From: Candidatus Micrarchaeota archaeon
GTDB taxonomy: Archaea > Micrarchaeota > Micrarchaeia > Anstonellales > Bilamarchaeaceae
Direction: 5' to 3'
NCBI GenBank assembly: GCA_018812715.1
Contig: JAHJCT010000017.1
Span: forward strand, 204,019 to 268,018
Length of the DNA stretch: 64,000 nt
Shown piece after piece: positions 1 to 33,700 of the stretch (positions within the stretch are counted from its first letter, which is position 1; each line of letters opens with the position of its first letter). The notes beneath the pieces were generated by a model. It did not search any database, was not told the DNA's origin, and was given only the letters and a program-made list of their open reading frames with translations. Both the position numbers and the translations under genes were made by a program.

Positions 1-3000
1 CTGTTGATTCTTCTGGTTCATTTTCTCCTACCCAGCCTTCTAGTCTGCCATACATGTAATTGGCTGCAATCAACCATCCGGCATTTCTTGCCTGATCTTC
101 ATTCCAACCATAAAGATCGACGAACATTGTTGTCATATTCTGATACATTTCATCTGCTTCCTGCTCTACTACTCTGTATTCCCGAAGAAGATCGACTTCA
201 TTATATGCAACTGTTACTCCATACCCATATGTTTCATGTTCACTTGTTGGTACCTCATGCCTCCATCGTCCTCCTATTGTTGCCGGATAACCACCAATAA
301 GTCTTGCTTCCCATGAATGTGATAATGGATCTACGCGCATGCGCCTCCACATAAGTTCTCCGCTTCCATGTGCCCAATGAGTGTCCGTTACTCTTGCGGG
401 ATTTTCAGGATCTAATTCAACTGTCTGGGCTCCGCGATAGAATGCTGCATAAACATCTCTTTGTCTTCCACTTTGTAACAAGTTTGTCACTGCCATGCCA
501 GTTGCTTCTTCTATGTGTACAGGATCCATTGTACTTAGGTTTCTTACAAGCTCTCCAAAGAGAAGTGCTGAAACTGTATCTCCGTCATCTCCAGTTGGTA
601 TGGTAAATCCAACAGCAGCACCATCAAATCCAGCTGCTGCCGAATCTTCTGTGAGCATTTCACTTCCAACAAATCTTAATGAAGCAAGTATATTCTGCGT
701 ATTTACTCCCCCATAAAGGTAATTCATCAACTCTGCTTCTGTATTACGTCCAAATGCAAGCTGGTAAACATCTCCCTCTCCTGTTATGAAAAACAATCTG
801 CTTCTTATTTCTCCTTGTTCTTCCTGCAGTCTGTCTCTTGTTTGGTTTTCAATATCTTCCATTGTTATTCCATAACCTTCCAAAAGTGCATCTAATTCTT
901 CTTGTGCTGCTTCTCTGTCTTCTTCAGTTTCTCCATTTCTTGAAGTATCCAGAAGCGTATTTATATGCGAATAATTAACATCTTCAGGATTTTCGACCCC
1001 CATATCTGTTATATCATCTGATGTTAATCTCCATGTGGGAGGACCAAGAAGTTCTGGCACATAGGTACCTGCAACAAAGAAAAGCATATCTGTTCCGGAT
1101 TCTCTTGCTATCCTTTGGTATGACTCAAGCAGTCCATCTGTCCTCACAGCAGTTGTTACTTCCTCTCCTTCTACCATGCCTGTTGAACTTTCATAAGTAA
1201 ATTCTTCTCGTGCCCTGTGGATTCCTACTCCTTCTCCTCTTCTAAACGTATCAACAGGAACAAGTTGAAGTAAAGGAAGCGGGACTGGTCCAGTTAATGG
1301 ACTTGGAACACCTACTGCTTCTCCAGTATAATCGACCCTATGGCCACCAGTAACACTTTCTTCAGCTTCGGTTCTTTCTCCAGTATATTGCAGCTCCCAT
1401 CTTTCTCCGCCAGTGATGCCCCGTAATTGTCCTTCACCAAGAGCAGCACCACGTTCTGTAACACTTCCTTCTTCTCCTTCTACTGAGTAGTACATTCCTC
1501 CTTCGGCATTGCCACTTAACCAATAATCCTGATAATTCACTGGCATAGCTCCAAAGAGCTGGGTAATTCTTCTTATGATTGTAGATGAACCAAGTGCACC
1601 AATTCTATATCGTGCTGGCACGCCCATTCTGAACATTCTGTCGGTTGGAGGGCGTACTTGATCATACATGTTTGAGAATAATCCCATTGCACCTGAATCA
1701 AGTACATTCAATCCTAACATTGGTCCATTTGGCATTGTCACGCGTGGAAGCAAACTGAGTGGCTGTCCACTTTGTCCATAAAGTGTTGGCAATTGTTCTT
1801 CATCATATTGCCACCAGCCTGGTCTTTGTCTGTATAAAAATGGGCTAATGAAACCCTCATCAGTCATTGGCTCCGGAACCATACGCATTTCATCTTCTAA
1901 TCTATGATGATCAAATGTACTTGTAATTTCTGGAAGTTGTTCTCCAATTCGTCTAAATACTCCAAGGAAGTATTCTCTGTTTATTGCATTACTATACATC
2001 AGATATCTTTGACCTTCAGCATATCTTTGTGTAAACATTTGCCTGAATGCCGTCATTCCTGCAATCAGCGTCCGCTCATCCTGAGCAACTTCTAATAATG
2101 CTGGAAGAACATACAATAAATATGGGCCAACGAGATAAGGATCCCTGTGTGATATCACTAAAAGCGTGTTCATTAATTCTGTGGCTGCAGCTCTTTGGAA
2201 GGCTGATCCACTTCCAGAAATGCCCTCAAGAGCTATGCCCATATATACTGCATCTAATATTGTAAGTTCATTGCGTAATTGTTGAACATTCTCATCTGTA
2301 AATTCTCCTGTTTCAGGACTAAAACCAGTTTCATTTCTTTGTAATAGGTATTCAGTTTCCATACCTTCATAGAACGTTCTTCCGGCCCTTATCAATTGTC
2401 TTCCAGCATCTGTTTGGAAAAATCTGGCCAGTTCTTCTGGTGTAACCTCATCTTGTAAATAGTCTGGTATATCGATGTGATACTGCTGTCCAATGCGTGT
2501 AAGATTTTCTCTGAAAAGTTCAAGATTGAAATATTGATTGAAAAGATAGTTATTCTCTCCAAATTCTTGTCTGTATATGTTTACAGCCTGTTCAAAATTG
2601 GTTCCAAATTCATCACTGGGATTAGAGAATAGCAATGCATTTCTTAATCTTGCATATACGCCGGGCAATGTTCTTGCTACGTGGTCATAATTCTCCATAA
2701 AGTTTGCCCTTGTTGCCCCGGGACCCTCTTCAAATGCACTATAAAGTCTTTCCAGAGTTTCTTCAGGAATATTTTCAAGCTCACTTACTCTAGCGCTTGG
2801 TCTTTCCAAAAATCTCAATGCATTCATATTTTCATGTACAAGTGTTACAAGGTCCTCTCCATAAGCAACATTAAGCATCTGTATTCTTTCTTGGAATCTT
2901 TCATATTCTCTTGTTCCTTCTGCTGGTTCATTCAACCACACCGCATATATTGCTCCGAGTGCATAAAACAACTCTTCTCCTTGATTAAGATATGTTCTTG

Positions 3001-6000
3001 TCAAGACATCAATTGTTCTTGAATATGCAGATGAATATGCTGCCATAAGTTCTCCTCTTACATCTTCTGGCAGTTCCCTTACTTGATCTAGACCAACTTC
3101 TGATTCCAATAATGGTGCAAGATGTTCTCGTTGTGCTTCAACTGCAACTACGAACTCTTCTCCAAACAATTCAACCATTCTTGCCCTGTTTTCTTCTCCT
3201 TGTGGATTTACTAACGCACGGTGGCATCTGATTAAAATACTTGCAAAAAGAACATTTTCTCCTTGTCTTAAATCTTCTCTGGTTGTACCTGGGCTTTCTA
3301 AGAATTGTAAATGTGGCGCATGTGCTTCAACAAGCAATACGAATTCCTCTCCATAATTTCTGACCAAGTCTCTTCTGTTGCTTTCTTCCAAACCAGCATA
3401 TGTTCTTGTAAGTGCATTAAAGAATCCTCTTTCATTCATGCTTCCAACAAACTCGTATAGTTCAGGATCTGCCCCATGCAAAACACTTGCAACAATCTCT
3501 TCTACGACTGCCTGTTTTTCAGGTGTAAGACTTCCAAACCAATCTAACAATTCTCTTAACTCCTGACTGTCAACATCTACACTTACAGTTCCAATCGCTC
3601 CGGTTACCCTTGTTAAATCCCCACCAGTTTGCGCTACATGTATCAAGGAGTATGCCATTTCAACTGATCTGCGAAGTTCTTGCGGATTTAACATTGAGTC
3701 AGACAATGTTCTTTGCTCTTGCTCCAATCTCTCAAGTGATTCTGCATCGGATGTAAGTCTGGATCTTCTTACTATTTCTCTGTTTTGTATCTCCCACCTT
3801 CTTATACGCTCCAATAAAAGTGCCCTTGCTGGTTCAAGAACAGAATATTGCAATTGTCTTCTAATATCCCCAATGTCATTTGCAATAGTGTGGCTGCGTG
3901 ATTCTATTGCCCTACTCCCCTCGCCTTCGATAACTACTGTAGGTGCAGTTACCACTTCTCTTGATACCACTGGCCTTACAAATAATGTTCCAAGTGCATC
4001 TCTTGCATCGACAAGAGCAACTCCTCCTCTGTTAATCGATTGTCTTGCCCTAGCTAATGCTGCCACCAATTGTACTGGGCCATATGAGTAAATTCTTCCT
4101 GCCCTCAATTCTCTTGTAGTTTCATCAGTCCTTTCTTGCAAAGCTGTTTCTATGCTCTGGACATCCCCAGAGAGCCATTCTAATTCAGCGCGATTTGTTT
4201 CAACAAAACCAACAAGTTCTTCCCCATATCGACTAACAAGCCTGCTTCTGTCTGTGCTATTTTCGTAAATATCATGCAGTGCAATTGCAAATGTCCCATA
4301 GGTATATCCAATGTTTTGCTGTATTTGTGTAACAACAGCGTCTTCACTTCTTGTGCGCATACCTTCTTCTATTTGTTCTATTGGAAGTACTAACCAATGA
4401 AGATTTTCTATATTTGTTTCAACAAAATTAACAAACTCTTCCCCATATCTGCTAACTAGTTCTGCCCTTCTTTCCCTCATTGTTTGTACTTCACTATATG
4501 CTTGCGTGAGGACAGTGCCAGCATTATTACCATATCTGCTTATCAGAGCAGTTGCGAGCGGATCTGCTTCTTCTCCTCTGCGGGTTCTTGTTCTTCTTTC
4601 AAGTTCTCCTTGGGCATCAGCAGGACTCATGTCAGCAACCCATGAAAGCTGATCAAAATTTTCTTCAACTGTTTGCATTTCTTGAACAACGTTATGCCCT
4701 ATTGTTCCTTCTTGCACTAATCTTGCATTTCCTCTTATTCTCTCCTCACGCAAGGCACTATAAACTTCTATTAATGCAGCTCCCCTATTTTCAACATCTA
4801 TTTCCAGAAGTTGAAGTGCTAGTGTATCCTCAAACCCAACTCTTCTACTCAGTTCTCTTTCGGCTTGCGTTCCATCTCTCATTAACCAGTCAATTCTGCT
4901 ATTTTGTATTATTACATTGACAAGCTCAGGTCCATAGTCAGTTCTTAATCTGTCAAGATCTGGAGTTTCTCTTGCCAGTTCAGTATAAATATCTCTTATT
5001 GCAATCGGGAGAATGTTTCTGCCAAATCCTCTTATGATCGCTGCTAATGTTTCATCATTATTTAGTTCAGCCCTATATAATGCTTGGAATTCATTCCAGA
5101 ATGTCTCATTCTCCTCTATTGGTCTACCAAGGAATCTTCCATTGAGTATTCCTCTAAATTCATTGCTTGCCTGCTGACTTCCAGTTGCAATAACCTCATT
5201 CATTAATCTGATTGCATGTCCTGCTTGTCCTCTTGCAACAATGTCAAGTAATGGTCCAATTACCTGCTCGTTCATCTGCGTTATTTCTGTATCGCTAACA
5301 TCTCTCCTTAGTACATCGCGCATAAAGCGTTGAACATGCGCATCTACATCCTGTCTTGTACCAGTTATGGCAAGATTATATACTTCTCGAACTAGTGTTG
5401 CAAATTCGCCGGGCTCTATCCCACTCATAATTCTGTTATAATTCTGTGTTATACTTGCTAAACCAGATGCTGTATCATTGTATATTCTTTCACGAAACTG
5501 TTCTGTAAATGCATCTGTAAATTCATCACTTGTATTTGCATTCCATATTCTTACAAATTCATCTCTACTTGTTTGATCGCCAGTAAGTATGAAATTCCTA
5601 AGATGATCTATTGCTATTCTTGCCTGTTCTGCTGGCATGCTTGTTATAACTAATTGTGTAAGATTCTCTCCATATCGTGCAGAAAGTTCTTCTACTGCCG
5701 CTCTTTGCAATTCTTTTCTTACAGCATTATCAATGGTATATCCTTCTTCCATCAATGCTCTTACTCTTCCGACATCAGTATCTGCCCTTACTGCTGTGCT
5801 GGTTTCTACTCTTTCCCTTAATTCATCTACTGCATCATTATTAGGAATACTTCTTGCCAATCCAGCTCTTATATTATACAACGTATCGATGAAGTCAACC
5901 ATAACAACAGGTTCTAATGGCCTTCTATCCTCTCTATAAGCCTCTAAAAGAGCACTCACTTGCGGATCTTCTCTAACCCGTTCCATTTCTTCAGAAAAGT

Positions 6001-6349
6001 GAGCCATAAAAGTAGCATTTTCATTTAATGGAGCTCCTCTGAAATCTTCATTATATATTCTCCAAAACAAGTCTCGTTGTGATTCGTTTCCAGTGATTAC
6101 ATAATTCCTATAAGCGTCAGCAGCTTCAGTGCCTCTTTGCTGAAGATACGTGACGTCCTCTGCTTCAATACGTCCCTGTTCTGCCATAGCTTCATTACCC
6201 CCGAAGTAGTTTATATTGGTAACGGTACCTACGCCAATGCTTGCAGAGAGAAAATACTTCATCCATCTCGAACGCTTTACCCGATCAAGAATGCCTTCAC
6301 GGCGAATCGTCTCTCGCTGTTCGCTATAACAAAGTTTTGCTCCTGCCAT
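1..6349 (-). CDS. Giant acidic repetitive protein, 5' part only (>2116 aa; C-terminus lies beyond the window start). Start ATG is the complement of 6347-6349.
   Basis: My own translation of the minus strand from 6349 to the window edge gives an uninterrupted frame. It is missing from the ORF track because no stop falls inside the window. The N-terminus MAGAKLCYSEQ... has a hydrophobic stretch around residues 28-50. An RYGEEFV..VE module recurs (for example near 4440, 4215, 3345, 3155 and 2855). Composition is R/E/D/A/T-rich, unlike the K-rich housekeeping genes. No family recognised. Confidence 0.8.
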   Translation of the reverse strand, partial: MAGAKLCYSEQRETIRREGILDRVKRSRWMKYFLSASIGVGTVTNINYFGGNEAMAEQGRIEAEDVTYLQQRGTEAADAYRNYVITGNESQRDLFWRIYNEDFRGAPLNENATFMAHFSEEMERVREDPQVSALLEAYREDRRPLEPVVMVDFIDTLYNIRAGLARSIPNNDAVDELRERVETSTAVRADTDVGRVRALMEEGYTIDNAVRKELQRAAVEELSARYGENLTQLVITSMPAEQARIAIDHLRNFILTGDQTSRDEFVRIWNANTSDEFTDAFTEQFRERIYNDTASGLASITQNYNRIMSGIEPGEFATLVREVYNLAITGTRQDVDAHVQRFMRDVLRRDVSDTEITQMNEQVIGPLLDIVARGQAGHAIRLMNEVIATGSQQASNEFRGILNGRFLGRPIEENETFWNEFQALYRAELNNDETLAAIIRGFGRNILPIAIRDIYTELARETPDLDRLRTDYGPELVNVIIQNSRIDWLMRDGTQAERELSRRVGFEDTLALQLLEIDVENRGAALIEVYSALREERIRGNARLVQEGTIGHNVVQEMQTVEENFDQLSWVADMSPADAQGELERRTRTRRGEEADPLATALISRYGNNAGTVLTQAYSEVQTMRERRAELVSRYGEEFVNFVETNIENLHWLVLPIEQIEEGMRTRSEDAVVTQIQQNIGYTYGTFAIALHDIYENSTDRSRLVSRYGEELVGFVETNRAELEWLSGDVQSIETALQERTDETTRELRAGRIYSYGPVQLVAALARARQSINRGGVALVDARDALGTLFVRPVVSREVVTAPTVVIEGEGSRAIESRSHTIANDIGDIRRQLQYSVLEPARALLLERIRRWEIQNREIVRRSRLTSDAESLERLEQEQRTLSDSMLNPQELRRSVEMAYSLIHVAQTGGDLTRVTGAIGTVSVDVDSQELRELLDWFGSLTPEKQAVVEEIVASVLHGADPELYEFVGSMNERGFFNALTRTYAGLEESNRRDLVRNYGEEFVLLVEAHAPHLQFLESPGTTREDLRQGENVLFASILIRCHRALVNPQGEENRARMVELFGEEFVVAVEAQREHLAPLLESEVGLDQVRELPEDVRGELMAAYSSAYSRTIDVLTRTYLNQGEELFYALGAIYAVWLNEPAEGTREYERFQERIQMLNVAYGEDLVTLVHENMNALRFLERPSARVSELENIPEETLERLYSAFEEGPGATRANFMENYDHVARTLPGVYARLRNALLFSNPSDEFGTNFEQAVNIYRQEFGENNYLFNQYFNLELFRENLTRIGQQYHIDIPDYLQDEVTPEELARFFQTDAGRQLIRAGRTFYEGMETEYLLQRNETGFSPETGEFTDENVQQLRNELTILDAVYMGIALEGISGSGSAFQRAAATELMNTLLVISHRDPYLVGPYLLYVLPALLEVAQDERTLIAGMTAFRQMFTQRYAEGQRYLMYSNAINREYFLGVFRRIGEQLPEITSTFDHHRLEDEMRMVPEPMTDEGFISPFLYRQRPGWWQYDEEQLPTLYGQSGQPLSLLPRVTMPNGPMLGLNVLDSGAMGLFSNMYDQVRPPTDRMFRMGVPARYRIGALGSSTIIRRITQLFGAMPVNYQDYWLSGNAEGGMYYSVEGEEGSVTERGAALGEGQLRGITGGERWELQYTGERTEAEESVTGGHRVDYTGEAVGVPSPLTGPVPLPLLQLVPVDTFRRGEGVGIHRAREEFTYESSTGMVEGEEVTTAVRTDGLLESYQRIARESGTDMLFFVAGTYVPELLGPPTWRLTSDDITDMGVENPEDVNYSHINTLLDTSRNGETEEDREAAQEELDALLEGYGITMEDIENQTRDRLQEEQGEIRSRLFFITGEGDVYQLAFGRNTEAELMNYLYGGVNTQNILASLRFVGSEMLTEDSAAAGFDGAAVGFTIPTGDDGDTVSALLFGELVRNLSTMDPVHIEEATGMAVTNLLQSGRQRDVYAAFYRGAQTVELDPENPARVTDTHWAHGSGELMWRRMRVDPLSHSWEARLIGGYPATIGGRWRHEVPTSEHETYGYGVTVAYNEVDLLREYRVVEQEADEMYQNMTTMFVDLYGWNEDQARNAGWLIAANYMYGRLEGWVGENEPEEST

Positions 6350-6421
6350 TGACTAACTACCTTTGTATTTATTGTGTTAAGAAAGCTTAAAAAGAGGTGT
6401 CACAATAAGGATTTTCAGGGA

Positions 6422-6967: not shown

Positions 6968-8533
6968 TCATTCTATTTGCAATACTCTTCTGCGCCTTGT
7001 CCCTTCATCTTGTGGTTGCGCTTCTGGCACTGTGACGTTTGGTATGCTCCTTGCCCAATCCCCAACAGTGGAAGTATGGTGATTCATTCTCCACGTATAA
7101 ACAGAAATAGCAGAAAGTGTTCTCATATCTATTATTCCATTAACATGAAGATCTGTTCGTGGAGTTCCTAATATGCTGTTATATAATAAGTTAAGATCTC
7201 CATTGAGGCTGTCAAACCATTCTTCATCTGTTCTAGTTGCTGAGAAATTTATGAATGCCTGCACTGCCCTTGCTACTAATCTTCTATCCGTGTCTGATGT
7301 GGTACTTCTTAAGCGTGTCGCTTCTCTTCCAACAGTTGCATATTCATCATGACTTTGTACAAATGCTAAAAACACCTCATCTTCATGCAGGTAGTCATTG
7401 AATATTCTCATAAAAGCATCATATACATCAGTTCTCTCTAATTCAGTTAATGCACTTTCTAAGGAATCGTATCCTTCCGGAAGAGTGCGCATGAGTGTTA
7501 TTATTGCCTCTGGCCTTCCCTGTTGCACTCCTTGATATAATTCAGTACTAAGATTGGCCCAATGGCTTTCAGCAAATTGTTGCAGTGGGGTTTGTCGTAC
7601 TTCGACTGCTAATACTTCTGTAGCTTGCCATACATCAATACTATCCTGGCTTACACCAGTTCCTGTTTCCAAATACCATCTTCTCAAATATAATGCAGCG
7701 GCTGTAAGTGTATCTGCATCCATTGCTACAGTACGGTATGTTCTGAGACTTTGCTCATTTCCAATTCTTGTATGAATCTCTGGTAATTGATCTATCTCTT
7801 GATGATATCTTGCATAATTTTCACGTGCTGCTTCAAATTCAAGAAGATAATACCGGGTAAAAGCAAGTGCTGTGTTTACCAAATTAGCATCTGCATTTAT
7901 CGCAAGTGTTGGGGGTTCTCCTTGTTCTGTCATATATGCCTGAAGCGCAGCATAATTCCCTCCTTCTCTTCCAGCAACAGATGAAAGGAATAATCTGAAT
8001 CTTGGTATTTGATAAAATTCATTGAAAATTGTAACTGCTGCTCCTCTTCTGTTTTCATCTGTAGAAAGAAATTGCTGAATGCGATCTCTGTTAGTGTGCA
8101 AGGTATTTACAGCATTCAATGCATCTGTGCTTCCTCTTGCTCTTAATTGCATTTGAATCCAATCAGTTGAAATTGTTGGTATTGGAGGTTGTTCTTCTAC
8201 TGTTTCTTCTCTTCTTTCTCGTCTGGGCCTTCTCTCACGCCTTGGTGCAGGTTCTTCTACAGCTGGTTCTTCTACTACAGGCTGAGGGTGCAGTTCTCCA
8301 TAAATACGTGTAGCTATTGCCGCTACATTTAATCCATCAATAGCATCAAAATCCTGATCTGCACATCTTCCGCTTGCCCAGTTTTTAGCGCGTCTCAGTT
8401 CTCCTTGCAGATCTTCAACGCTCATTTGATCGTTTACAGTTACTCCTGTGTTATACCTTCTTGCCTCTCCTTCTCCACCTGTACAAACTATTACTATCGT
8501 ATTATTTCGAAGCGTTACTCTGGCATCAACCAT
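6968..8533 (-). CDS. Hypothetical 521-aa protein linked to the giant-protein cluster
   Basis: Its ATG shares a base (position 8533) with the stop of the 2854-aa gene. The N-terminus VTLRNNTIVIVCTGGEGEARRY loosely resembles the YGLTVSGEGE C-terminal motif of the giants. R/E/A/T-rich composition with a PRRERRPRRERREE linker. Confidence 0.6.
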   Translation of the reverse strand: MVDARVTLRNNTIVIVCTGGEGEARRYNTGVTVNDQMSVEDLQGELRRAKNWASGRCADQDFDAIDGLNVAAIATRIYGELHPQPVVEEPAVEEPAPRRERRPRRERREETVEEQPPIPTISTDWIQMQLRARGSTDALNAVNTLHTNRDRIQQFLSTDENRRGAAVTIFNEFYQIPRFRLFLSSVAGREGGNYAALQAYMTEQGEPPTLAINADANLVNTALAFTRYYLLEFEAARENYARYHQEIDQLPEIHTRIGNEQSLRTYRTVAMDADTLTAAALYLRRWYLETGTGVSQDSIDVWQATEVLAVEVRQTPLQQFAESHWANLSTELYQGVQQGRPEAIITLMRTLPEGYDSLESALTELERTDVYDAFMRIFNDYLHEDEVFLAFVQSHDEYATVGREATRLRSTTSDTDRRLVARAVQAFINFSATRTDEEWFDSLNGDLNLLYNSILGTPRTDLHVNGIIDMRTLSAISVYTWRMNHHTSTVGDWARSIPNVTVPEAQPQDEGTRRRRVLQIE

Positions 8534-11500
8534 TAACGTTCCCCTCTTCTGCTAACATACTGCATGATATGATTACGCAGGCCATTTCTTGCAGTCCTTC
8601 TATCAACTTCTACACTTAAACCTTCTCCTTCACCACTTACAGTAAGTCCATATCCTTCACGTAATTGCATGTCTCTATCTATGGTGCTAGTAAGTAATCT
8701 GTACATCTCTGCTTTGATATCTGCTCTTACAACATCTCTTGCTCTTTCTCTTGTTTCAGCATCTTCTGAATTTATTTCAGGACCATATGCATTTACCATT
8801 GCCTGTGCATCCTCTGTTAATGTTCCATCATCGTTTCTAGCTTCAATCATTCTGTCTATTGTTCCATCCAACAATGGTGTTAATGTACTTTCTTCATTTG
8901 CATAAAATCTCTGTGCTTCAGGTGATAAAGTTGCTGGAGGTGCATGAACTTCTTCAACATCAATCTGATCCTCTCTTCTGGGAGTCATTACTTCAAATCC
9001 AGGCCGTCTAACATATTGTGCTTCAAATTCTTCTCCAACCGGCTCCACTGTTTCTTCTCTTGTTACAGTTCCTCTGCTTCTTTCTCTTTCTTCCCTGGCT
9101 TGTTCTTCAGCAGGTGTTGCTCCATCCCACCAGCCGTTTGATCTGTACACTGTAGCCCTGCGGTCTAGATATTCGTATATTTCAGTGTATCTTCCAGGTC
9201 CTGGGACAGTGCTATGTTGCGAAGCATCTTCTATTATTTCTAAAACATGCCCGCGGATATTGTCTCTGTGATCTAGCAGCCATCTCACAAAACCTAATCT
9301 TTCTTCATCTGATCTTTCTGCAATAAATGTAACTAAGTGTGCATTCTCAGGATCAAACAATCTTGGTTCCATATATCCAAGAACTGCTGAACCTACAAAG
9401 CCGCGTTGTCTTGCTGCTTCAACTGCTTCTCCTGGAGTTTCACTTTCTAATATTAATGCTGCAAGCTCTTGCGGATTTCCATAGATTGCGTCTCCTCCAA
9501 TAACTCTATTCTCTTCTCCGTATCTAATATCCTCAATATTAAATGCATTGAATGCAAGCAAGGCTTCATTATTTTCTCTATATTGATTGAGCAGTTGTTC
9601 ATATGTATCTCTGAATCCAGGATCAAGTGATGCCCTGACATCAAGCAATCCAAGGAATGAATTTTGTCTTATTCCTGTAACTGTTCCATCTTCTTCTATT
9701 ACTTCAATGTAAAGATTCTGTGATCTCAAATGTGCTTCAAGTACCTGATAGATATCTCTTTCACTAGTAACCTGTTGCCTTAATTCTGTTATCCTTCCTT
9801 CGCTTGTAAGATCATTCATTATATTATCTAAATATACACTGGGTATGTGTCCTCCTTGTACTGCTTCCCATAAGTAGGCAAATACATCTGTGTTTGAAGT
9901 AAGGAAATCTACTCTTTGTCCGCCTTCTCTTGTATATCTTCCGCTTTCCGCCTCCCCTTCACTGATCAAACCAGTATCTACACAGAATGCATCTGCAACT
10001 GCATCCCTGAAATCTATCACAAGTCCTCTTTCTCTCCATTGTGGTATACGCAGATCAAATAAATCCGTAATATCTACTTCTTCTTTTCTTTCTTGCGAAA
10101 GAATTCCTTGCACATCATCAACAGTCAATCCCCATGGTTCAAGGATTGCTGCAAGCTCTGCCTCTCTTCTATCTTCTGCATCTCCTCTCCTCATATCACT
10201 CAATAGATCATTTATGTCATCTAATCTTCCGCCCATCTCTCTTCCGTCAGCAACTATCTCTCCAAGTCTTCTTGGTTCTATTAGTATGTCTGTTCTTTGA
10301 AGCAATTGATTAAGATCTTCTACATTTCCAGGTCTCCTATCTCTACCTCTTGGAAGAGCATTGGGCATGTGGAAGAAGAATCGCCTCCCTTCTTCAGTTG
10401 CAAGCCATTCCAAATCTTCATCACTGGCTCCGGCACAAAGATTTCCAAAGTCTCTTTCGCATAGCCTTCTTCCTTCTTCAACTGATCCGGCACTATTAAG
10501 TGAATTGTACCATGGCAATAGAACATTATCCCACGCGTAATTTCCAATCACATACCAGGCTATAGCCTGCGGTATTAAGTAAGGAGAATTCCTTAATCCT
10601 GCTCTTATCCTCCCTCCCGGAACTGCATTTCTTATGGAATTAACAAATCTTCTTGCTCCCCAATTAGTGAGTGGTTCCCAATTGTTGAGAAATCTAAGAA
10701 TTCTCCATCCAATATTTATTGCATCGTCCCTTAATGGTCTTGTATCTCTTGCAAATACATCTGCAGCAGTGCTTGCTTGGTCTAAAACTTGATTTATTCT
10801 TGGTCTTAATGCATTTATTGCTGAAAATTCTTGTGCAAATGCCGGGTCTTGACTAATATTTCTTACAAAACCTTCTAACGGAGTTCTCATTTCTCTTGGC
10901 ACAAACTGTGGTTCTGCTCCTTCTACAGCTCTGCCTTGTTCCAATACATTCAATATCTCGTCTACAGTTCTATTATTTTGCACTGCATCTCTGTAAATCT
11001 CTGCAGCTTCCCTTCCATATCTTTCCCTTACTGCTCTTTCAACTTCAGGACTTCTCAGAATCTCAGTTAACACATCATTAACATTTCCACCTTGGGAACT
11101 ACGCTCAAGAAGAGTACGCCTAATTACATTTGTTACTGGTTCATCAGCTATTGGAATTTCTCTTATTCTTCCTTCCACACTGTTTTGAACTCCAGCCAAT
11201 TCGCGAACAAGCATCTGAGGCGGAATTATGTCACTACCTTCTAATCTAGGCAATAATGATGCTCTTTCCAGCGGCGTGTATTCAATTCCAAGCAATTCCT
11301 GTGTTCTTAAAAGCGGTGCCAATTCACCCCGTTGTGCTTCAATTGCCCTTATCATCACTTCTACATCATTTGCAGAAAATCCTTCACGTGCTTGCACTGC
11401 CATATAATCTTCAGGACTTATTCCAGCATTTCTTGCCCCGCTTTCAATTGTTCTTCCTGTTCTATTTAATATATCTCTAAGTACTGGATCTGTTTCAGCT

Positions 11501-14500
11501 AATGTTTCAAGTTGTGCCCTTACATTTGGCCTTGAGTATATGCGTCTTAATAAATTCCAATAGCCACTAGTCTCCCCTCTTGCCGTTTGTGCTGTGTCGT
11601 ATAAAGATTTCATGATATCTGCTATTCTCTGAGGACTAGAATTCAACAGGTTTTCAAGTTCTACTGCCTCTGTTCTTGCTGTTTGTGCTTCTTGCTCTGC
11701 AACCCTTATCTCTTCTGGTCTTGCCCCTCCTTCTCTAAGTTCTTCTACTCTGACTTCAAGTTCAGTAGCTCTTGTGCGTGCCCTACTTATTTCTAATTGT
11801 GCCAATTCAGGATCTAATACCATATCCAAAGTATTTCTAACTCCTTCGCCTGTTGTACTAAGTACTTCTTCAGCTTCAGGAAGTTCGGCCCTTGCATTTC
11901 TCTCTACTCTATCGCTTCTCCAATTTTGCCAGCGCTCTCTTCCAAATCTATACATTCGTTCAAAGCGTCCCCATCTTACTTCTGGTATTGGCCGAACTGG
12001 TCCACCACCTCCACCCTGGCCCCCACCAACGGTTGTATCAACAGGACCTATTCCTCCTTGTTGCACTCCTGGTGGCCTTGCTCCTCCCTCTTCAGCCATT
12101 GCTCTTACTTCAGGCATCTGCCTTATCATCATTGGACCTTCGCCTTCAACAAGATGAGGCCTGCGTGCCATTTCACTTGCAACAACATCTTCTATGTAAT
12201 AGTTGTAATCATTCACTGCCATTGCAACAGCTTCAGGTTCAAACATTGCTTCTATTTGTGATCTTGCATTTTCCAAAGCACGTTGTGAAAATGGAGTTGC
12301 TTCTCCAGTTTCAAAGTAATGCCTTACACTTGGATTCCTGATAAGTCCATCTATTATTTCTGCAACTTCAGGATTTTCTGCCCTTATATTCTCTAATGTT
12401 TGTTGTGCTGCAGCTCTATGAACTACATTTTCTCTTGCTGTTGTTCCTTCAGGTGTTAGCAATCCCTCAAGCAGCCAATCCAATCTTCCTGGCTGCAATG
12501 TTCCTGTGCTTTCAACTTCTGTTACTGGTCTTCCGCCTCTTGGCCCTGGCGTTGGAGGTTCTGGGCCTCTGAATATCATATCAATTACACTTGTCATATT
12601 TCCTCGTGCAAGTGGTGTCATTTCTCCTGTTACTAGGGCCTCTGGAACATGCATAAAGCTTGTATTTCCAATGCTGCCCGTCTCCATAAACTGCATTATT
12701 CTTCCTTGTACTTCCTCAGGCAGTGTTCTCAACCGTGCCTGTGCACCATCCCTTACAGTCGGGTCTTCACTTCTCAACTCTCTCATGAATTCAAACATTT
12801 CTTCTGGGGTTCGAAGTCTTTGTGCTTCTCTAACTGAAGGAATTTCATTAGGTTCTATTTCAATTGGAACCTCTCGCGGTTCCGGTGCCCTTATCTCTTC
12901 AGCTACAAGCTCAGTTTCTGTTCTTGCTTCTGTTGTTCCTCTTACTGGTCTGGCTCTCATAGCTTGCCATCCACGTGACCCTGCCATATGTGCCCATGGG
13001 AAAGCGGCCATTGCAGTTAGGAAAATTCCCTCCCGCATATTCCCTTCTGAAAAGGCATCAACTGCATGATATCCCATATATCCTGAGAAACCAACTCCAA
13101 TTCCAATGTTTGTATAATTAAGGGCTCTTACCACTTGTGTCATTCTAGTAGCATATGCAGTTCCTTGTGCAAACTGTGCTTCTGTACGTAAAACGCCTGC
13201 AAGTCCTCCGATACCCATAGTTGCTATTATCCCACCAAACATCAACCACGATGTCCAACTTGCTTCTCCTTGTACCCGGTATTCTGTAACTATCTGATCA
13301 AATGCCATAGTTGCAAAGAGCGACCCACCAAAAAGTTGTCCTCCAGGTACGAGACACGCTACAACCCCAACAGCAGTTAGTCCAACTGTAGTCCAAAATT
13401 GGTGGTCTGCTACTCGTTCCTGCATTCGATCTATGATTGCATTAGCATCATCAAATCTTCCCATGCCAACAAGGGCATATACATTGCCTTGATCGACAGC
13501 ATACTCTGCAAACATCTGGCTTCCTGAATCTGCAGGAATTGCGAATATTGATGCTTCAACAATTCTTGCACCATTCAAATCCAACTGCATTCTCTCTTGT
13601 GATCCAGACCCTCCTCTACCAAAGAGAATATAATGCATCGAATCTGTTTGCATTTCTCTGTAAGCATCCCAATAAGATCTATCTGGTTCGCTTCTCATAA
13701 ATTCTGCAAAATCTTCTGGGAAAAATATTGCCTCTCCTAATCGTTCTGCACCTTCAAGGAAGTTTTCAATACCTGTAGCAGTTAAATTCATCGCACTTCT
13801 TCCTTCATATGATGCCATAGCAGTTATCCTATGATCTATAGCAGCTTCATATGCTTCTTCAGCTTCCTGGAACCTTCCCTCCAAAATAAGATTTTGAGCT
13901 CTTTGCAAATCAGTATTACAATCTCTTAAATTATCTTCTGCTAAACTAAATCTATCTCCACCCCCAATTCTTATCATTCTTAGATATTCATCGTTTACTT
14001 CTATCTGCTGTCCTATCTGTGAATAAGCCATGGCTGCCCTGCTTTCTCCTTGCACTAATTCGAGCAGATAACTCATCACAGTTCCGCCTCTTAGCCCCTC
14101 TCCATATATTGGCAGATCATCTGTAGTATATTCTATCCCATCCATCTGTGTAAGCAGAGCATCTACTTCGGTAGAAAGATATATCACTTGCCTTAATCTT
14201 CCCATCTCAAGGTCTGATACTGCTCCAAATGTCTCTGGATGCTGTTCAATATAATCTGCCATTAAAGAAAGGCCATTGCTTGTTGTAGTAAATGCGCCTA
14301 CATCATGGCCATAATCCCATGCTGTTTGCCAAGCTCTTTCTCCTGTTGTTCCTCCTCCGCACATGTTTATGACATAAGCTCGGAATGCTTCAGTAAGTGC
14401 ATCATTTCCTTGCCTAAGTATTACTTCAGCATCTACTACTGTACTTCGTCTATGCACTCTTGTAGCAATTAATGACAATCGGTTCCAATATGTTTCACTT

Positions 14501-17106: not shown

Positions 17107-17430
17107 TCAAGTATATTCCTTACACATAAGTACAAAATCCTGCAGCCTCTCAAGTCTCGCCTTTTCATTATCTTTTCCTTTCACTGCTTTTTTCTGCCAT
17201 TCAACCAGCTCATCATGGAATTTTCTTATTTTTTCTATCTGTGGCTCCATACTCCTGCTTTTTACCTTTGAAGCCTCCCATTTTGCAAGGAATTTTTCTA
17301 TTACAGTAATAGTATGATTTACCCTGTTTATTGTATTTTTTTCAACAGAAGCAGCATCAGTCTTAACAGGTATTTTCTTCTTGGAGATTTTTTTCTTTTT
17401 TGAAGATTTTTTCTTAGCCATCAGAAGCAC
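17107..17430 (-). CDS. Small lysine-rich protein (107 aa) immediately upstream of the 2854-aa gene
   Basis: Its ORF ends 9 nt before the giant's start codon. K-rich and AT-rich like the housekeeping genes, not like the giants. The N-terminus MAKKKSSKKKKISKKK suggests nucleic-acid or acidic-partner binding. No family recognised. Confidence 0.45.
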   Translation of the reverse strand: MLLMAKKKSSKKKKISKKKIPVKTDAASVEKNTINRVNHTITVIEKFLAKWEASKVKSRSMEPQIEKIRKFHDELVEWQKKAVKGKDNEKARLERLQDFVLMCKEYT

Positions 17431-17511
17431 CTAAAAATTTATGGCGCTCCAACTTTATAAATTTGTACTATTTCACATAGAATTAGAAAAATATTATAAA
17501 AAATAAAAGAA

Positions 17512-20500
17512 TTATTCATTTTCTCTGCCTACAAAGCTCAGAGTGTGTCTCTCTATGCCTCTTCTGGCTCTTCCCATATCTGTTATTTGAACAGCGAACT
17601 CTTCGCCTTCACCACTTACAGTGAGTCCATAGTCAGTACGGTGCTGTACGTCCCTTCGTATATCACTTGTAAGAAGTCTATACCACTCTGCTCTTATTGC
17701 CATTTCAGTTTGTTCTCTGTTCCCTTCAAATGCACTTCTTAGCAATTGACCGTCTTCTCCTTCATCAGTGAAGAGCCTTTCCAGGGTTCCGTCCAACATG
17801 CTGTTAAAGTCATTTTCAATAGTATAGAACTGTTGAGCCTCAGCGTTCAATTCTGTACCACTTCTCTCAGTTCCAGTTCCTCTAAATCTTTCTACTTCAT
17901 TGATGTATCCTGTATCAACAGCCCACTGTACACGAACACCTTGTGGATCTGAGAATGGATTATAGTCAGATACATTTCCACCATCTGCTTTGTGCCTTTG
18001 CAGTTCTTCAACAAATTCTTCAAGACGGTATCTGTTGAGTCTGTATCGTGCACCTCTGGTATCGACAAAGCTTGTCAGGAGCTCTCTTATATCCTGGTTT
18101 GTTGGCGCAAGAAGAGTGTATGCCATGCTATCTGAAATATCAAATTCAGAAAGTTCTCTTCTTAACTCCCTTCTTGCATATTGTTCAGAGGTATCTTCAA
18201 CCCATCCATTTGTTCTTGCAGTTGCCATTGCTTCATTGAATGTTTCTTCTAACATTACATCAGTTACAGGAACACGTCTTGTTTGCAATGTTTGTCCTTC
18301 CCCAGCTCTTGCTTGTGTTTTTTCTTCCCAAAGAGTAACAAATGCTTCTCTATTTTCTGGTTTGAGGTACTCGGTATGCTCTCCCCTTTCAGCCACTAAT
18401 GGAAGCATAAGTCTTCCTACTCTATCTCTTCCTTGTGCAAAGACAAAATCCACTAATCCAAGATCTGCTATATTATAATTATCCATTACTCTTTCTTGTT
18501 GCTCAGATACGAGGAATCCTCTTTCTACCCATTGCCTTGTATGTTCATTCATATAGTCATAGTCAACTGTTGCCCTCGTTCCCTCTTGTGCCATTAAATA
18601 ATCAACAAATTCATTTGTCATATTCCTGTTGAGTTTAAGGCCATCGGTTATCACAGTATATTCTACATCGATTATACAACAGAACTGATTTCCTGATTCC
18701 CATTCATCTTCAATTGCTAGTGGTTCCCAGTTTTCTACATCATCCATACTTTCAATACCAAGTTCTCTGCATGAATTAGGTATTACTAATCCCGGTGTTG
18801 CTGGAGGCCTTTCAACTGCTTCTCCTGTTCCCTCGGCTACTTCATTAGTTCCTTCAGCTACCTCGCCAGTTCCTTCTGCATTTTCTTCTCTAGGCGGAGG
18901 TTGTGCTCTAGAGGTAGAACCTGCACTTGTTTCCTGAGAACAATTAGCTATGTCATCATCATCCAGTTCGTTTACATCTCTAACATGTTTCAATGTTCTT
19001 CTCTCTTGGAAGAATGTAAGAACACCTTCATTATCATGTTCAACTTGATTATCCCTTAGCCAGTCTAATCTTTCCTCACCTGTAACTCCATATGCAGTTG
19101 TGTAATAACTATCCTCTCTTTCTGCAAGTCGTTCTGGAATGTCGTAACTATCATTTATCATTCTCTTATTTGAGAGCTCACCTTGCATCGGAGACCACCA
19201 TTCCCAAGGTGCTCGGTCGAAGTGGTTTCCAAAATGATTAAAGCTCCAACGCCATGGCATCGCATTCCATGAGAATGGATTGTACCAATGACCTGTAGTT
19301 GATGTACCAATGCGATAGGTCCAAGGTTTGTACCATGCTCCGTTTGGTGTTGTTGTCATCCATTCATTTGGTGATGTGAACCATGCAACACCAAAAGATC
19401 CTATCAAGTATGCTTTGAGTGCTCCTTTCCAAAGTCCCCTCAACCATCTCGGGTAATGTTGGTATGTGTGAGCCTTTCCTGTAATTGGATTTCTACCAAC
19501 AACTTGCTTATTCCAATTTCGTTTCTTAAGATCATCAACTGTTTCTCCAAAGCCCCAACTTGAAAGTCTTCTAAGACGCCCACCTCTAAAATTACCTTGT
19601 GACTTTCCTATCCATGCTTCGCTTGTAAATAATCTCCAGAACCATTTATCTTTGAACTTTTGCCATTTTCCTACAGTTACTTTTGGAGACGGATCCCAGC
19701 TTTCTTTTGTAGCTTCCCAGATCGTTCTTGCTATAACAAATTGACCTTGAGGTATTTCACCTAAGTTTTCAGCAGTTCTTTTATGAAGCATTTCAACTGA
19801 TTTTTCAGCTGCTTTTCCTAATGGCTTGGAATACTTATTTTCTATTTTTACCAGCATCTCTTCTAATGAAGCACGAGGATACTTTCTAGTTTCTATTGCC
19901 TTTACAACTGTCAGCATTCTTTTTCTTACTTCATCAGGCAATTCTGCTCCTTCTACTTTTGTTCTTAATGCAGTTGCTTTTGTATCAAATGCTTCAAGCT
20001 TATATCTGAAAAGTTCTTCGCTTTCACCTTTACCTTTTCGTTCTTGTATCACTGCATCATATTCTGCTTTAGTAATACTTCTTGCTCTAAGCAGTTCATC
20101 CAATTGTTCTGCAGTTTTTGTTCTCAATCCTTGTTCTGTTGAAGGAATACCAAACAATTGCTGGCAGTCGTCCATACGATCAAGAACTTTCTTTGTATCT
20201 TTCATCAATTCACTGATAACTGGATTGCCTAGCCACTCTCCTGCTCTATTTGGAAGTTCATGAATTAATTCTGTACTCACTTCTCTGCAGTCAAGCATAT
20301 GCTTTTTGAAGTTTTCAGAGTATGTCCGTACTACATTTTCAAATCTGCCATTTTCAGTTCCTTGTATTCCACCTAATTCTGCTGAAAGTGTATCAAATAT
20401 TTCTTTTGCTTGAGTATACTCGTCCTCTATTCTCGCCCCCCTAGCAGACAAACTCAGTCCACGGGTATTAAATTCACTAATTCGCTGTCTTGCAATTACT

Positions 20501-21990: not shown

Positions 21991-22428
21991 TTATAATCTT
22001 TCCTTAACTAGCTCAACGAATTTCTTTGCATTTTCTAATGCCTTTTCTGCTTCTTCTTTTCCTACACTATCTGATTCTCCATATACGACGTCATGCCGTC
22101 TTACTCGATACCGATTAAATGTATTTGCTAATCCGATCGACTCTGCTGGAAAGACTGCTGCACAGAATTGAACTACCGCGAGATGATGGGCCTCTGATAC
22201 TGGCATATATCCTTTATACGTCATCAAAGCCCTACCAGCAGATAGCATAGCATTATACGCTATTGCCAGTGCCCAATCATAATTCTTATTTTTCAAATTA
22301 TCTGATGCTACCCTCAGGTCTCTTTCTGCCATCAATAGTATCTCTTTAGCTTTTTCTCTATCGCTTTCCACTTTTCTTACTAAATCCTTCTTTAACAATT
22401 CTGCTAAATTCATCCTTCTCACCAACAA
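21991..22428 (-). CDS. HEPN-domain protein (toxin-like partner of the upstream nucleotidyltransferase)
   Basis: Rx4HxxxY motif (RYRVRRHDVVYG) near the C-terminus of a small helical protein. It overlaps the 3' end of the upstream minimal-nucleotidyltransferase gene. Confidence 0.65.
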   Translation of the reverse strand: MLVRRMNLAELLKKDLVRKVESDREKAKEILLMAERDLRVASDNLKNKNYDWALAIAYNAMLSAGRALMTYKGYMPVSEAHHLAVVQFCAAVFPAESIGLANTFNRYRVRRHDVVYGESDSVGKEEAEKALENAKKFVELVKERL

Positions 22429-22966
22429 GCCAAATGATTTTTTTCTTTAAAATATTAGTCAAAAATGAACCTTTCTTTTTTATTTTTTCTTCGAAATCTT
22501 TCTCACTCCATAAAATGAAATTTATTGCTTTTTCATGTTCTTTTTGTATTTCAAATATTCTATTTGCAAGAGTTTCATCATTCACATCTCCAATAACTAG
22601 GATATCTATATCACTATGTTTTTTCTCCTGTTCTCTGGCGCTACTGCCAAAAATAAAGGCATATTTTATTCTACCAGTTGCTTGCAAAACACTCTGTAAT
22701 TTGAAAATTACGCCCTCTGTTTTTTGGTAAAGTTTTTTTAGATCATGTAAAAACGGACATGCTTTGTTTAAATTGAATGCGAGCTGATTCCCTCTTTTTT
22801 CTTTTAGTAATATGTTTAACTCTGTCAATATCTCAAGTTCTCGTTTTGCTTCATAAGGTGAAACTCCAGCTCTTCTTGCAATTTCTCTAAGATGAAGCCC
22901 GTCTTCAAATAATACAATCCCAAGAACTTTTACTTCAGCCTTTGAACGCAATAATCTCTCTAACAT
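22358..22966 (-). CDS. Minimal nucleotidyltransferase (MNT) with N-terminal winged-HTH, paired with the HEPN protein
   Basis: GSSAREQEKKHSDIDILVIGD matches the GS...D.D nucleotidyltransferase signature. The N-terminal LHLREIARRAGVSPYEAKRELEIL is HTH-like. HEPN/MNT pairs are typical toxin-antitoxin or defence modules. Confidence 0.7.
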   Translation of the reverse strand: MLERLLRSKAEVKVLGIVLFEDGLHLREIARRAGVSPYEAKRELEILTELNILLKEKRGNQLAFNLNKACPFLHDLKKLYQKTEGVIFKLQSVLQATGRIKYAFIFGSSAREQEKKHSDIDILVIGDVNDETLANRIFEIQKEHEKAINFILWSEKDFEEKIKKKGSFLTNILKKKIIWLVGEKDEFSRIVKEGFSKKSGKR

Positions 22967-30796: not shown

Positions 30797-33700
30797 ATGT
30801 CATCTATACGATGCGCTATGAGTAGATCGTTGTTATTACTGGTTCTAAGTGTATTATTGCTCTCAAGTTTTGCTTTTGCTGCAACTCTTGAAGTTACTAC
30901 AGGCACAAGTTGTGTTGGTTCTCCTGATGGAACATTCACAACGATCCAGGCTGCAATAAATAACGCATCTACTGGTGATGTAGTAATTGTGTGTGATGGC
31001 ACGTATACAGAAAATGTTGAAGTGAACACATCGATAAACCTATCAGGTGAAACTCCTGATGTTACTGTTGTAGCTTTCAATGATACATTACCTGCAATTA
31101 CTACTTATGCCAGCAATGTTAACATTACTAATTTTACTGTTACTGGTGCAGATGGCATTGGTGATTATTCATGCGGATTATTAGTAGGCCGAGTATTAAC
31201 TGGCAAATTTCCTGATACTGAAAATGTTACTGTCTATAATGTAATAGCAGAAGATAATGATAATGGATTTTGTGTTTATGATGATACTGTTTCTTTGGTT
31301 GGTCTTGTAAATGTAACAGCAGATGGAAATGATATCGGCATTTTTCTAACATCATTGTCTACTACTTATGGTCCAAATTATGTGTTTGTAATTAATTCTA
31401 CCATGACTGACAACGCAGTTGGATTAAAGCTCTATAGAACTAATTATACATTTGTATATAACAACACATTTTATGCCAACAATCGTGATGCGGGCCATTT
31501 CGATATTTCAGGTGGATTTGGCGTATGGTCACAATCGCATGTAAGAAATCTTGATTTCATGTATAATAATATCTCTGAGAATGATGCTGGTTTTCTTGCT
31601 GGCTGTGATTGGCCTTGTATAACTCTTGGAGAACACCTGGCTGATGCAAGAATAGCTTTCAATAATTTCACTGATAATGTAATGTTGTCACTTGTAATGG
31701 ATCAGGATCATATTGATCCGTCTTCTCCTATAAATGTCACTGGAAATCGTTTTACTGGCGATACATTATTCCATTTTGTTACAGATGATATGTACAATCT
31801 TACTGTAGCTGATAATTATTTCAGCGATGCTGTAGCCTGTATTGGTTTTGGCTTTACCTCAGGACCGGTAGATATTTTTTCGAACTACATAACTGATTGC
31901 CAGGTTGGAATGGCTTTCTTAGAGCTTGAAGAAAATACATTGTTTGTGTATGACAATGAACTTGTTAACAATTACTTCAATTTTGGTGTTCTTTCAGCCT
32001 TTGGAAGCGGATATATCCAGAATATATCTACTAACAATACAGTTGATGGCAAGCCAATCTATTACTTTGTCAATGGGACCACTGGAGATGGAAATACTAA
32101 TTTCAATCCTGTTCCTGCAGATGCCGGATATGTGGCTTTAATTCTTACAAATAATTCAAGAGTTGAAAATCTCTTATTAGAACATAATATTAACGGGTTA
32201 GTTGCTCTCGAGTCAGTCAATGTCACTGTTGATAATGTAAGCATGGTGACTAATTTTTGGGGGGCATTCCTGGGAACAGTTAATTCTACTTATAGTAATG
32301 TAGAAATTAGCGACTGTAATAATCCTGTTATCACCCCATACCTGTCAACATATCTTGGTTATTTCATGTGCGGTTTGATTACAGCAGCATTCAACAATAC
32401 GTACAATAATTTTTCAATCTATGACCAGGAGGAGTGTTATCTTCTTGCAATGAATGCAACTGGATATCAAGGTTGGGCCCCTGGTTGGGGAGATACGATC
32501 TACGCAAACAACTTCACCATCGGTTATACTGAAACCACTGGTCTTATCAATTACAGATACTTTGAAATTCACGGCGGCGGATCAAGTACAATGAACCTCA
32601 CATGGCTTGTCCCAAAAGATCTTTCATTATTTAATGCAACAGTTTTACTAGATGACTTTATTGTCTTGATAAACGACTCTGATCCTGCAGTTGAACCTTA
32701 TTTCGAAAACCCGGCGAATGTTACATTATTGGGGGCTGGCTGTCCTTTGACATATTACAATGTAACTGGTTTCCCAACAACTGAAGCAGCCATACTCACA
32801 GCCGCAACAGAATTTACTCCAAATATCATCTCAGCTTGTAATGGCGGGCTAACAACCTTTGAAGTTCCTGGATTTACTGGCTATTTTGTTGCTGGACCAG
32901 AAGATGATGAAGATGATGGGGAGAATCAGATATCATTAGATTATGAAAGACTGGAATGTCCAGAAAATGGAGTTTTATTAACTGCAACTCGTGGCAATAC
33001 GGTTCTTTCTAATGTTGAATTTAGAGTTTTATTCAATAGTTTATTCTATGATCTTATTCCATCTGCACCTGGAGAGTATCAACTTATGCTAACTGCAGAA
33101 GGGGATTATGATATTACTGCAAGAAAGAGCAGTTACAACGATGACAGCGTTTCATTTACTTTTGAACTCTGTGAAGTAGATGAAACACATTTAGCGTGTG
33201 TGAATTCTGCATGTGTTAGAGTGAGTGGTGCTGGTGAAAACCTCTGTTCCTCAAGTGCAGATTGTGAAGAAACCCCAGTATACGAATGCTATTCAGATGG
33301 CGATTGCGATGATGCATACTTCTGTGATATTCCAGCAGGACAAATCGGAGGAACATGCGAACCAGTAACTGGCGAATGCGGCTATCCACAAAATCATACC
33401 TGGGTGCAATATGAATGTGGCAATGAAGTGGGATGTCAGCCATGCCCAGAAGGAGAAGTTTGCGTAAATCATGTATGTGCTGAAAGATTACTTACTGGTC
33501 CTGAAACCGGCTTTGTAGGAGACAATGTAACACTCAATGGAAAAGAAAACGGTGGGCCGTGTGCACTTTGTGATGTTGTCATACTTAATCCTGTGGGCGA
33601 AACCCTCTACGGCAAAACAAATACTAATGGTGATCTTAATCTTCCGTTAACTATGAAAGGAAATTATTCCATTGGTCTTCTTGCTCCAGATGGTGCAATC

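Follow-up and report, generated by a model that had tools for sequence, protein, structure and literature searches.

A conserved C-terminal domain shared by two otherwise unrelated giant proteins of a Micrarchaeota gene cluster

Why should two giant proteins, encoded almost side by side in an archaeal genome, have only their C-terminal ends in common? The question is raised by a 64-kb stretch of DNA from Candidatus Micrarchaeota archaeon (contig JAHJCT010000017.1), termed the window here and used as the frame for all window coordinates. The Micrarchaeota belong to the DPANN archaea and have ultrasmall cells and reduced genomes; the window nevertheless holds a syntenic cluster that includes three giant genes (>21 kb in the window) whose products match nothing known. 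All genes of the cluster lie on the minus strand and are transcribed in the order g1 (a giant protein of 1463 amino acids, aa), a small 104-aa gene, g2 (a giant protein of 2854 aa), a gene for a 521-aa protein (p521) and g3, a third giant (Table 1). None of the five window proteins belongs to a Pfam, NCBIfam or PHROGs family; g1 and g2 are deposited at NCBI on a 301,896-bp contig. The gene content of the window is archaeal (fibrillarin, eIF6, L31e, prefoldin, the SRP54-type GTPase gene ftsY, and CDC48) and its G+C content is ~38-40%. A first-pass annotation of this DNA had proposed that the final ~100 residues of g1 and g2 align closely whereas their N-terminal regions differ, and that the common module is a sorting, secretion or anchoring signal, or an interaction domain. 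As described below, the module, hereafter the C-terminal domain (CTD), appears to be an undescribed domain specific to the Micrarchaeia, and the favoured explanation, for which confidence is about evenly balanced, is that two unrelated giants use it in common for docking or assembly on the cytoplasmic side of the membrane.

The close alignment of the two C-termini was upheld by each of the methods applied. BLASTP of full-length g2 against g1, with composition-based statistics, returned a single significant segment with 53 of 131 positions identical (40%, E=2e-17), spanning the final 131 residues of g2 and the final 112 of g1, and a MAFFT alignment of the two domains gave 44% identity over the pair with 51 invariant columns. 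These columns include a hydrophobic core (F12, Y13, L24, I75, Y80, L82, L83, I87, Y97, L99, V101, V110 and V129), and the similarity is not limited to Gly and Glu residues. Profile-profile comparison of 14 g1 with 6 g2 orthologues aligned 109 columns of the CTD (probability 99.4%, E=4.6e-21). Because nothing significant remained once the CTD had been cut off (best match E=0.14), the CTD is, on the profile evidence, the sole element common to g1 and g2, and the N-terminal regions differ as had been proposed. The interval first flagged, 8533-8832, corresponds to the g2 stop codon and the final 99 codons, and the real domain is somewhat longer: a family hidden Markov model (HMM) matches the last 135 residues of g2 (E=4e-71) and the last 116 of g1 (E=1e-52). 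The structured part of the g2 domain starts at LSPEAQRFY (8902-8928), and the g1 domain is without an insertion of ~18 residues that the g2 type carries between helices. An RRPGFE motif ~25 residues upstream of the CTD (window 8941-9020, minus strand) is conserved in g2-type proteins only.

Such a resemblance could in principle be due to chance, to low sequence complexity or to a recent copying event within the genome (gene conversion) without functional meaning, and the presence of an E/G-rich motif might be taken in favour of this. Over R..YGLTVSGEGE (8623-8661 and 17602-17640, minus strand) the same codon is also used at 9 of 11 identical residues, including a CGT Arg codon. Across the whole domain, however, synonymous sites are saturated, with 27 identical codons at identical residues against 24.6 expected, which rules out a recent gene conversion between the two window copies, and the local codon run is probably due to chance. 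This account has practically no likelihood in view of the E-value obtained with composition correction, the conserved hydrophobic core, the occurrence of 37 carriers across many genomes and a CTD tree that splits by carrier family.

These carriers were obtained by an exhaustive HMMER search against 1.84 billion cluster representatives, which yielded 39 proteins at E<1e-3 (22 of them at E<1e-10). Two proteins, P0038 and P0039, were discarded since they matched partially, in several stretches and away from the C-terminus. In all 37 remaining carriers the body is homologous to g1 or g2 by BLASTP, or the protein is a fragment of such a protein, and the CTD ends 0-43 residues from the C-terminus. 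Orthologues of g1 measure 994-1770 aa (24-35% identity) and those of g2 2355-3258 aa (27-38% identity). P0004 carries two tandem copies of the CTD and P0003 one additional internal copy, and in many orthologues a Pro/Ala/Gln-rich linker precedes the domain; because of these extra copies and this linker, the CTD evidently behaves as an independent, movable module. At one locus (L002) a second g2 paralogue brings the number of CTD carriers to three. The main split of a neighbour-joining tree of the CTDs follows the carrier family, g1 versus g2. Since the tree splits in this way and synonymous sites are saturated, the CTD must already have been on both giants in the ancestor of the sampled genomes, before their lineages diverged. 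Every named source of a carrier is Candidatus Micrarchaeota, Micrarchaeia or Bilamarchaeum (order Anstonellales), and the domain is, as far as these sources extend, confined to Candidatus Micrarchaeota (class Micrarchaeia, DPANN).

Synteny follows the same pattern. At all loci with sufficient flanking sequence the cluster comes after genes for S19e, a dsDNA-binding protein, L39e, L31e, eIF6, LX, prefoldin and ftsY, and its core order is again g1, small protein, g2, p521-like protein and g3. The HMM also matches the extreme C-terminus of a g1- or g2-like protein in loci L002-L005, L007, L010 and L011. In the Bilamarchaeum-like loci L006 (10331-19891) and L008 (5654-14425), g1 is CTD-positive and the g2 C-terminus is negative with the HMM; a weak hhalign match, in register with the hairpin and last helix of the domain (E=0.006), suggests a highly divergent copy there. 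The cluster order is not invariant: in L011 (Ga0074045_10008305), g2 and p521 lie on the strand opposite to g3. A survey of the literature on giant or large proteins of Micrarchaeota found no description of the cluster; the CTD and the giant-gene cluster are previously undescribed.

Conservation within the domain bears on whether it acts on its own carrier. A regulatory or catalytic cap working in cis on each giant, for example a small enzyme or a plug that inhibits its own carrier, would be in keeping with the retention of the CTD on both proteins over deep divergence and with conserved polar positions at or near the motifs Y-R-x-L-T-S, R..[YW]G, S-G-x-G and A-R..L..H. Such a role is nonetheless improbable: among 36 CTD sequences only two columns, F18 and G109, are at least 90% conserved, both look structural (G109 being the nearly invariant Gly of the S-G-x-G hairpin), and there is no invariant polar residue of catalytic type. 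Furthermore, g1 and g2 are not related in their bodies, which makes a common target in cis unlikely, and the linker before the CTD is flexible and of low complexity.

The CTD is confidently folded in an AlphaFold2 (AF2) prediction based on the 36-sequence alignment (predicted local distance difference test, pLDDT, 94.7; predicted template modelling score, pTM, 0.87), as would be expected of an autonomously folding domain of ~115-135 residues, and the proposal of a conserved C-terminal module on otherwise unrelated giants is borne out. The predicted architecture consists of five to six helices (modelled at 13-20, 26-39, 49-63, 67-89 and 94-102), a beta-hairpin (105-108/115-118; TVSGEGEGLSVEV) with a G-[IL]-T-V-S-G-x-G motif, a last helix (120-140) and a short basic tail (RRGER, RRRQ, RSRSKR). 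Foldseek of the model against the PDB gave a best match of E=0.46 (template modelling score ~0.2), a profile search of PDB sequences with the CTD gave a best match of E=1 to the hypothetical protein 1z7u, and no Pfam family recurs among the 36 sequences. The CTD therefore matches no known family in Pfam, NCBIfam or PHROGs and no solved structure in the PDB, and may represent a new fold. The name TPR, which the Joint Genome Institute (JGI) gives to the g2 orthologue P0007, refers to the g2 body rather than to the CTD, and was rejected for want of any Pfam match at E<=0.01 in P0007 or P0021, or at E<=0.1 in window g2.

Several of the sub-threshold Foldseek matches in the PDB are winged-helix proteins, including SSV1 F-93, RovA, ArsR, SqrR and FOXP3, and 1z7u is presumably an HxlR-like winged-helix protein. 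The order of helices 67-89 and 94-102 and the hairpin 105-118 is compatible with a winged helix-turn-helix (wHTH), and the helix, beta-hairpin, helix element at the C-terminus recalls the C-terminal winged-helix interaction modules of archaeal MCM and Orc1/Cdc6 and folds of MarR/ArsR type. Membership of the MarR/ArsR/HxlR-like wHTH proteins was rejected, there being no significant sequence or structure match, and the resemblance is a lead rather than a result. It also forms the basis of a further explanation, that the CTD binds a non-protein ligand, either nucleic acid in the manner of a winged helix or acidic lipid head groups, and so tethers the giants to nucleoid, ribosome or membrane. The topology with its basic tail, the weak winged-helix matches and the Lys-rich tail of the neighbouring 104-aa protein would be consistent with this. 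The putative recognition helix and the wing are, however, acidic or neutral rather than basic in most members, the CTDs are net negative, and no helix-turn-helix family recurs in the Pfam scans of the 36 members, all of which make ligand binding quite improbable.

The cellular location of the giants bears on the role that had first been proposed for the CTD. No signal peptide was found at the N-terminus of g1 or g2, both of which are hydrophilic. The hydropathy of eight orthologues indicates that g2 has, midway along its length, a conserved group of four to five hydrophobic helices rich in Gly, which is likely to be a membrane anchor; the charges of its loops agree with four membrane passes and both termini inside (N-in/C-in), and an Arg-rich stretch follows directly after the last helix. 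A membrane association is possible for g1 too, through one conserved, weakly hydrophobic segment that precedes a Trp-rich stretch. In terms of composition, compared among proteins of the window, six open reading frames (ORFs) with a signal-peptide-like N-terminus have 2.6-8.4% K+R, 16-25% S+T+N and 1.1-3.3 N-x-S/T sequons per 100 aa, whereas K+R amounts to 10-14% and sequons to 0-0.8 per 100 aa in g1, in g2 as a whole and in each of its halves, and in the two CTDs, all of which resemble the ribosomal and housekeeping proteins of the window; the halves of g1, too, are K/R-rich and sequon-poor. The two halves of g2 are indistinguishable from each other, and the CTDs themselves have 10-13% K+R and no sequon and are net acidic. 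Because of the absent signal peptides, this cytoplasm-like composition and the N-in/C-in loop charges of g2, the two giants and their CTDs are with moderate confidence placed in the cytoplasm.

Exported proteins of this organism stand out clearly by composition, with a low Lys/Arg content and many sequons. Large signal-peptide proteins encoded at 30797-33862 (plus), 56459-60028 (minus), 53680-54486 (plus) and 60789-62477 (minus) are poor in Lys and Arg and rich in N-glycosylation sequons, and one of them contains a right-handed beta-helix domain.

A C-terminal sorting, secretion or anchoring signal, read by dedicated machinery and delivering the giants to the cell surface, the S-layer or a host, has to be weighed against this location. 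A conserved C-terminal element on several very large proteins is a hallmark of sorting systems, as in the CTDs of the type IX secretion system (T9SS) and in PGF-CTERM proteins, where many large proteins of one organism share such an element, and giant proteins of DPANN archaea are often assumed in the general literature to mediate host contact. The g1 hydrophobic segment is more positive on its N-terminal side, which fits N-in/C-out, g2 could have five spanning helices, and the cluster adjoins ftsY. On the other hand, both g1 and g2 end in 40 polar or charged residues, without a hydrophobic helix, known motif or match in NCBIfam, the collection from which NCBI names sorting signals, and no hydropathy peak occurs near the C-terminus in any of 22 orthologues. 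A PGF-CTERM/archaeosortase signal, which consists of a motif, a transmembrane helix and a basic tail, was rejected because only the basic tail is present, and an exported carrier of PGF-CTERM type because the N-termini (MGGTTIERPEEEE and MTGSVIDRAQGRDK) are hydrophilic and the composition is cytoplasm-like. A T9SS C-terminal domain, which is a beta-sandwich of ~80-100 residues, was likewise rejected: the present model is mostly helical, its six to seven helices being accompanied by just one hairpin, and has no NCBIfam or Pfam match. The K+R content of the CTDs and of the C-terminal halves (10-13%) and the lack of sequons in the CTDs contrast with the values for signal-peptide proteins, the Arg-rich stretch lies directly behind the last g2 hydrophobic helix, and the cluster contains no genes for export machinery. 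A sorting signal is accordingly improbable, and of the functions first suggested it is the interaction domain that remains the most plausible.

Because the giants have no signal peptides and a cytoplasm-like composition, docking or assembly in the cytoplasm is favoured over sorting, secretion or anchoring. According to this explanation, g1 and g2 would lie with their CTDs in the cytoplasm, g2 being held in the membrane by the mid-protein bundle of four to five helices, and the CTD would act as a common handle for protein-protein docking or assembly, through which g1 and g2 would either be joined directly or meet on a single partner such as the 104-aa protein, resulting in a large membrane-associated complex. 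Several points weigh against it. The topology is uncertain, in that both CTDs would be outside the cell with five spanning helices in g2 and one in g1, and the argument from composition is limited to one 64-kb window. The net acidic charge of both CTDs offers no obvious charge complementarity, and within g2 the CTD does not stand out by better conservation (its identity is 0.35, compared with as much as 0.46 in other parts). Finally, to judge from L006 and L008, the pairing of CTDs on g1 and g2 is not demonstrably universal.

The docking explanation has parallels in known systems. Dockerins of cellulosomal proteins (PF00404) are also small folded end modules on different large proteins that assemble on a common partner, but they are bacterial and extracellular and consist of duplicated Ca-binding EF-hand-like segments, whereas the CTD is a predicted helical bundle with a hairpin, archaeal and apparently cytoplasmic, and the 104-aa protein, p521 and g3 are the candidates for a partner in the place of a cohesin. 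A dockerin assignment was rejected, as neither g1, g2 nor any of the 36 CTD sequences gave a match to the Pfam family even at E<=1. Docking domains (communication-mediating, COM) of non-ribosomal peptide synthetase and polyketide synthase (NRPS/PKS) megasynthases are terminal modules by which giants from one cluster recognise each other; they are helices of 15-30 residues that work in pairs of a C- and an N-terminus, whereas the CTD is globular, 115-135 residues long and C-terminal on both proteins, with no homology to COM domains and no synthase domains in the giants. Giant proteins of other DPANN archaea, as far as is known, contain domains that can be recognised as adhesins, proteases or nucleases and are regarded as exposed on the surface. 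The present giants differ in having no known domain, a cytoplasm-like composition and a fixed place beside ftsY, and no homology was found. Very large size, restriction to a lineage and a noticeable share of a small genome are common to both groups, the nanohaloarchaeal giants discussed in PMC10266531 being an example of the former.

Table 1. Features of the giant-gene cluster and of the shared C-terminal domain in the 64-kb window.
Feature	Position	Strand	Notes
g1, giant protein, 1463 aa	17512..21903	-	NCBI MBU0532450.1, 'hypothetical protein', Candidatus Micrarchaeota archaeon
g2, giant protein, 2854 aa	8533..17097	-	NCBI MBU0532448.1, 'hypothetical protein', Candidatus Micrarchaeota archaeon
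Conserved 104-aa protein of the gene lying between g1 and g2 (ATG at 17421)	17107..17421	-	
p521, 521-aa protein	6968..8533	-	ATG overlaps g2 stop by one base (TAATG)
g3, third giant, >2117 aa in window, C-terminus off-window	2..6352	-	
CTD of g2, residues 2720-2854	8536..8940	-	HMM match; BLASTP E=2e-17 to g1
CTD of g1, residues 1348-1463	17515..17862	-	HMM match E=1.1e-52; pairwise alignment
Predicted beta-hairpin of g2 CTD, YGLTVSGEGEGLSVEV	8605..8652	-	DSSP strands 105-108 and 115-118 of AF2 model
Same hairpin in g1 CTD, YGLTVSGEGEEFAVQI	17584..17631	-	Pairwise and family alignments
Cluster of 4-5 Gly-rich hydrophobic helices mid-g2, residues ~1235-1380	12958..13395	-	Hydropathy of 8 orthologues
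Conserved g1 segment of weak hydrophobicity, GALKAYLIGSFGVAWF, preceding a Trp-rich stretch	19378..19425	-	

The remaining members of the cluster were considered as possible associates of the CTD carriers. The small protein, of 104 aa from its ATG but 107 aa from a GTG in the ORF listing, combines a three-helix bundle with a Lys-rich disordered tail. It is the best-conserved member of the cluster (50-67% identity), with 93 homologues of which all named ones are from Micrarchaeota, and is a candidate partner of the giants. The p521 protein opens with IVIVCTGGEGEARRY (window 8453-8500), and the GGEGE string that had been noted there as similar to the shared motif is indeed present. Its proposed link with the CTD was abandoned: the BLASTP comparison of the p521 N-terminus with the CTD gave E=5.2, the family HMM run across the window has no match at E<10 beyond the C-termini of g1 and g2, and the string is not conserved, its place being taken by SDGN or GLSGGAS in p521 orthologues. 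These orthologues are usually 717-822 aa long with a GDSL/SGNH lipase domain, as in L004 (10375-12750; Pfam Lipase_GDSL_2, E=1.5e-9). The window p521 is without this domain, and only its N-terminal ~310 residues are conserved.

It had also been suggested that the off-window C-terminus of g3 might carry the CTD. Orthologues of g3 are ~2880-2990 aa long, and complete C-termini were available from a metagenome scan for three of them, in L009, L010 and L011. The open frames of L009 (2992 aa) and L010 (2890 aa) are 40-45% identical to window g3 over most of its length, and L011 is 49% identical over ~400 matched residues. The CTD HMM has no match at any of these three C-termini, where hhalign aligned 28 columns at E=0.056. 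The g3 orthologue encoded beside P0021, which is complete at 2922 aa, is not among the HMMER hits for the CTD, and no carrier from the global search is homologous to g3. The suggestion is thus contradicted by the orthologues, and g3 itself almost certainly has no CTD. At least five repeats of ~100 residues with the motif YGEEFV.FVE.N...L.WL, without a family match, occur in g3. The last ~260 residues of its orthologues (L009 4211-13186, L010 3868-12537) are rich in Gly, Trp and Tyr in an alternating pattern with an aromatic end residue, a C-terminus that is reminiscent of a beta-barrel.

Taken together, the cluster invites a broader proposal, in which the CTD would be the assembly handle of a hitherto undescribed giant membrane-associated machine, specific to the Micrarchaeia and composed of g1, the 104-aa protein, membrane-anchored g2, the GDSL-lipase protein and g3 with its beta-rich C-terminus, and devoted to lipid acquisition, membrane remodelling or an internal cytoskeleton-like structure. 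This extension of the docking explanation is speculative and rather unlikely to hold in full. Its parts together exceed 7000 residues, which is roughly 2% of a genome estimated here at ~1 Mb, and the unexplained tubular organelle of ARMAN (archaeal Richmond Mine acidophilic nanoorganisms) cells is an example of an internal structure that such a machine might form. Because it is the sole element linking two of the giants, the CTD is the most tractable entry to the system, being small, with a confidently predicted fold, and suited to marking the cluster by sequence in metagenomic data. Very little is known of the cell biology of this group, and a CTD that mediates assembly would define a cellular machine that is new and specific to the lineage; a surface-exposed CTD would instead represent a new archaeal sorting or anchoring module.

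The spacing of the genes provides some indication of how the cluster is transcribed. In the interval 17422-17511 (minus strand), a T-rich run follows right after the g1 stop codon, a TATA-like AAATTTATAAAG is found at about 17453-17464, ~37 nt upstream of the ATG of the small gene, and only 10 nt separate the small gene from g2, with a 1-nt overlap between g2 and p521. Because of the T-rich run, the TATA-like element and this tight spacing, the small gene, g2 and p521 are suggested to form a separate transcription unit. Between ftsY and g1 (21991-22966, minus strand) lies a pair of genes for a nucleotidyltransferase (Polbeta/NTP_transf_2, 202 aa) and a HEPN protein (145 aa), a toxin-antitoxin-like module that is not at this position in L002, L003, L006 and L008 and that sits elsewhere on the P0034 contig.

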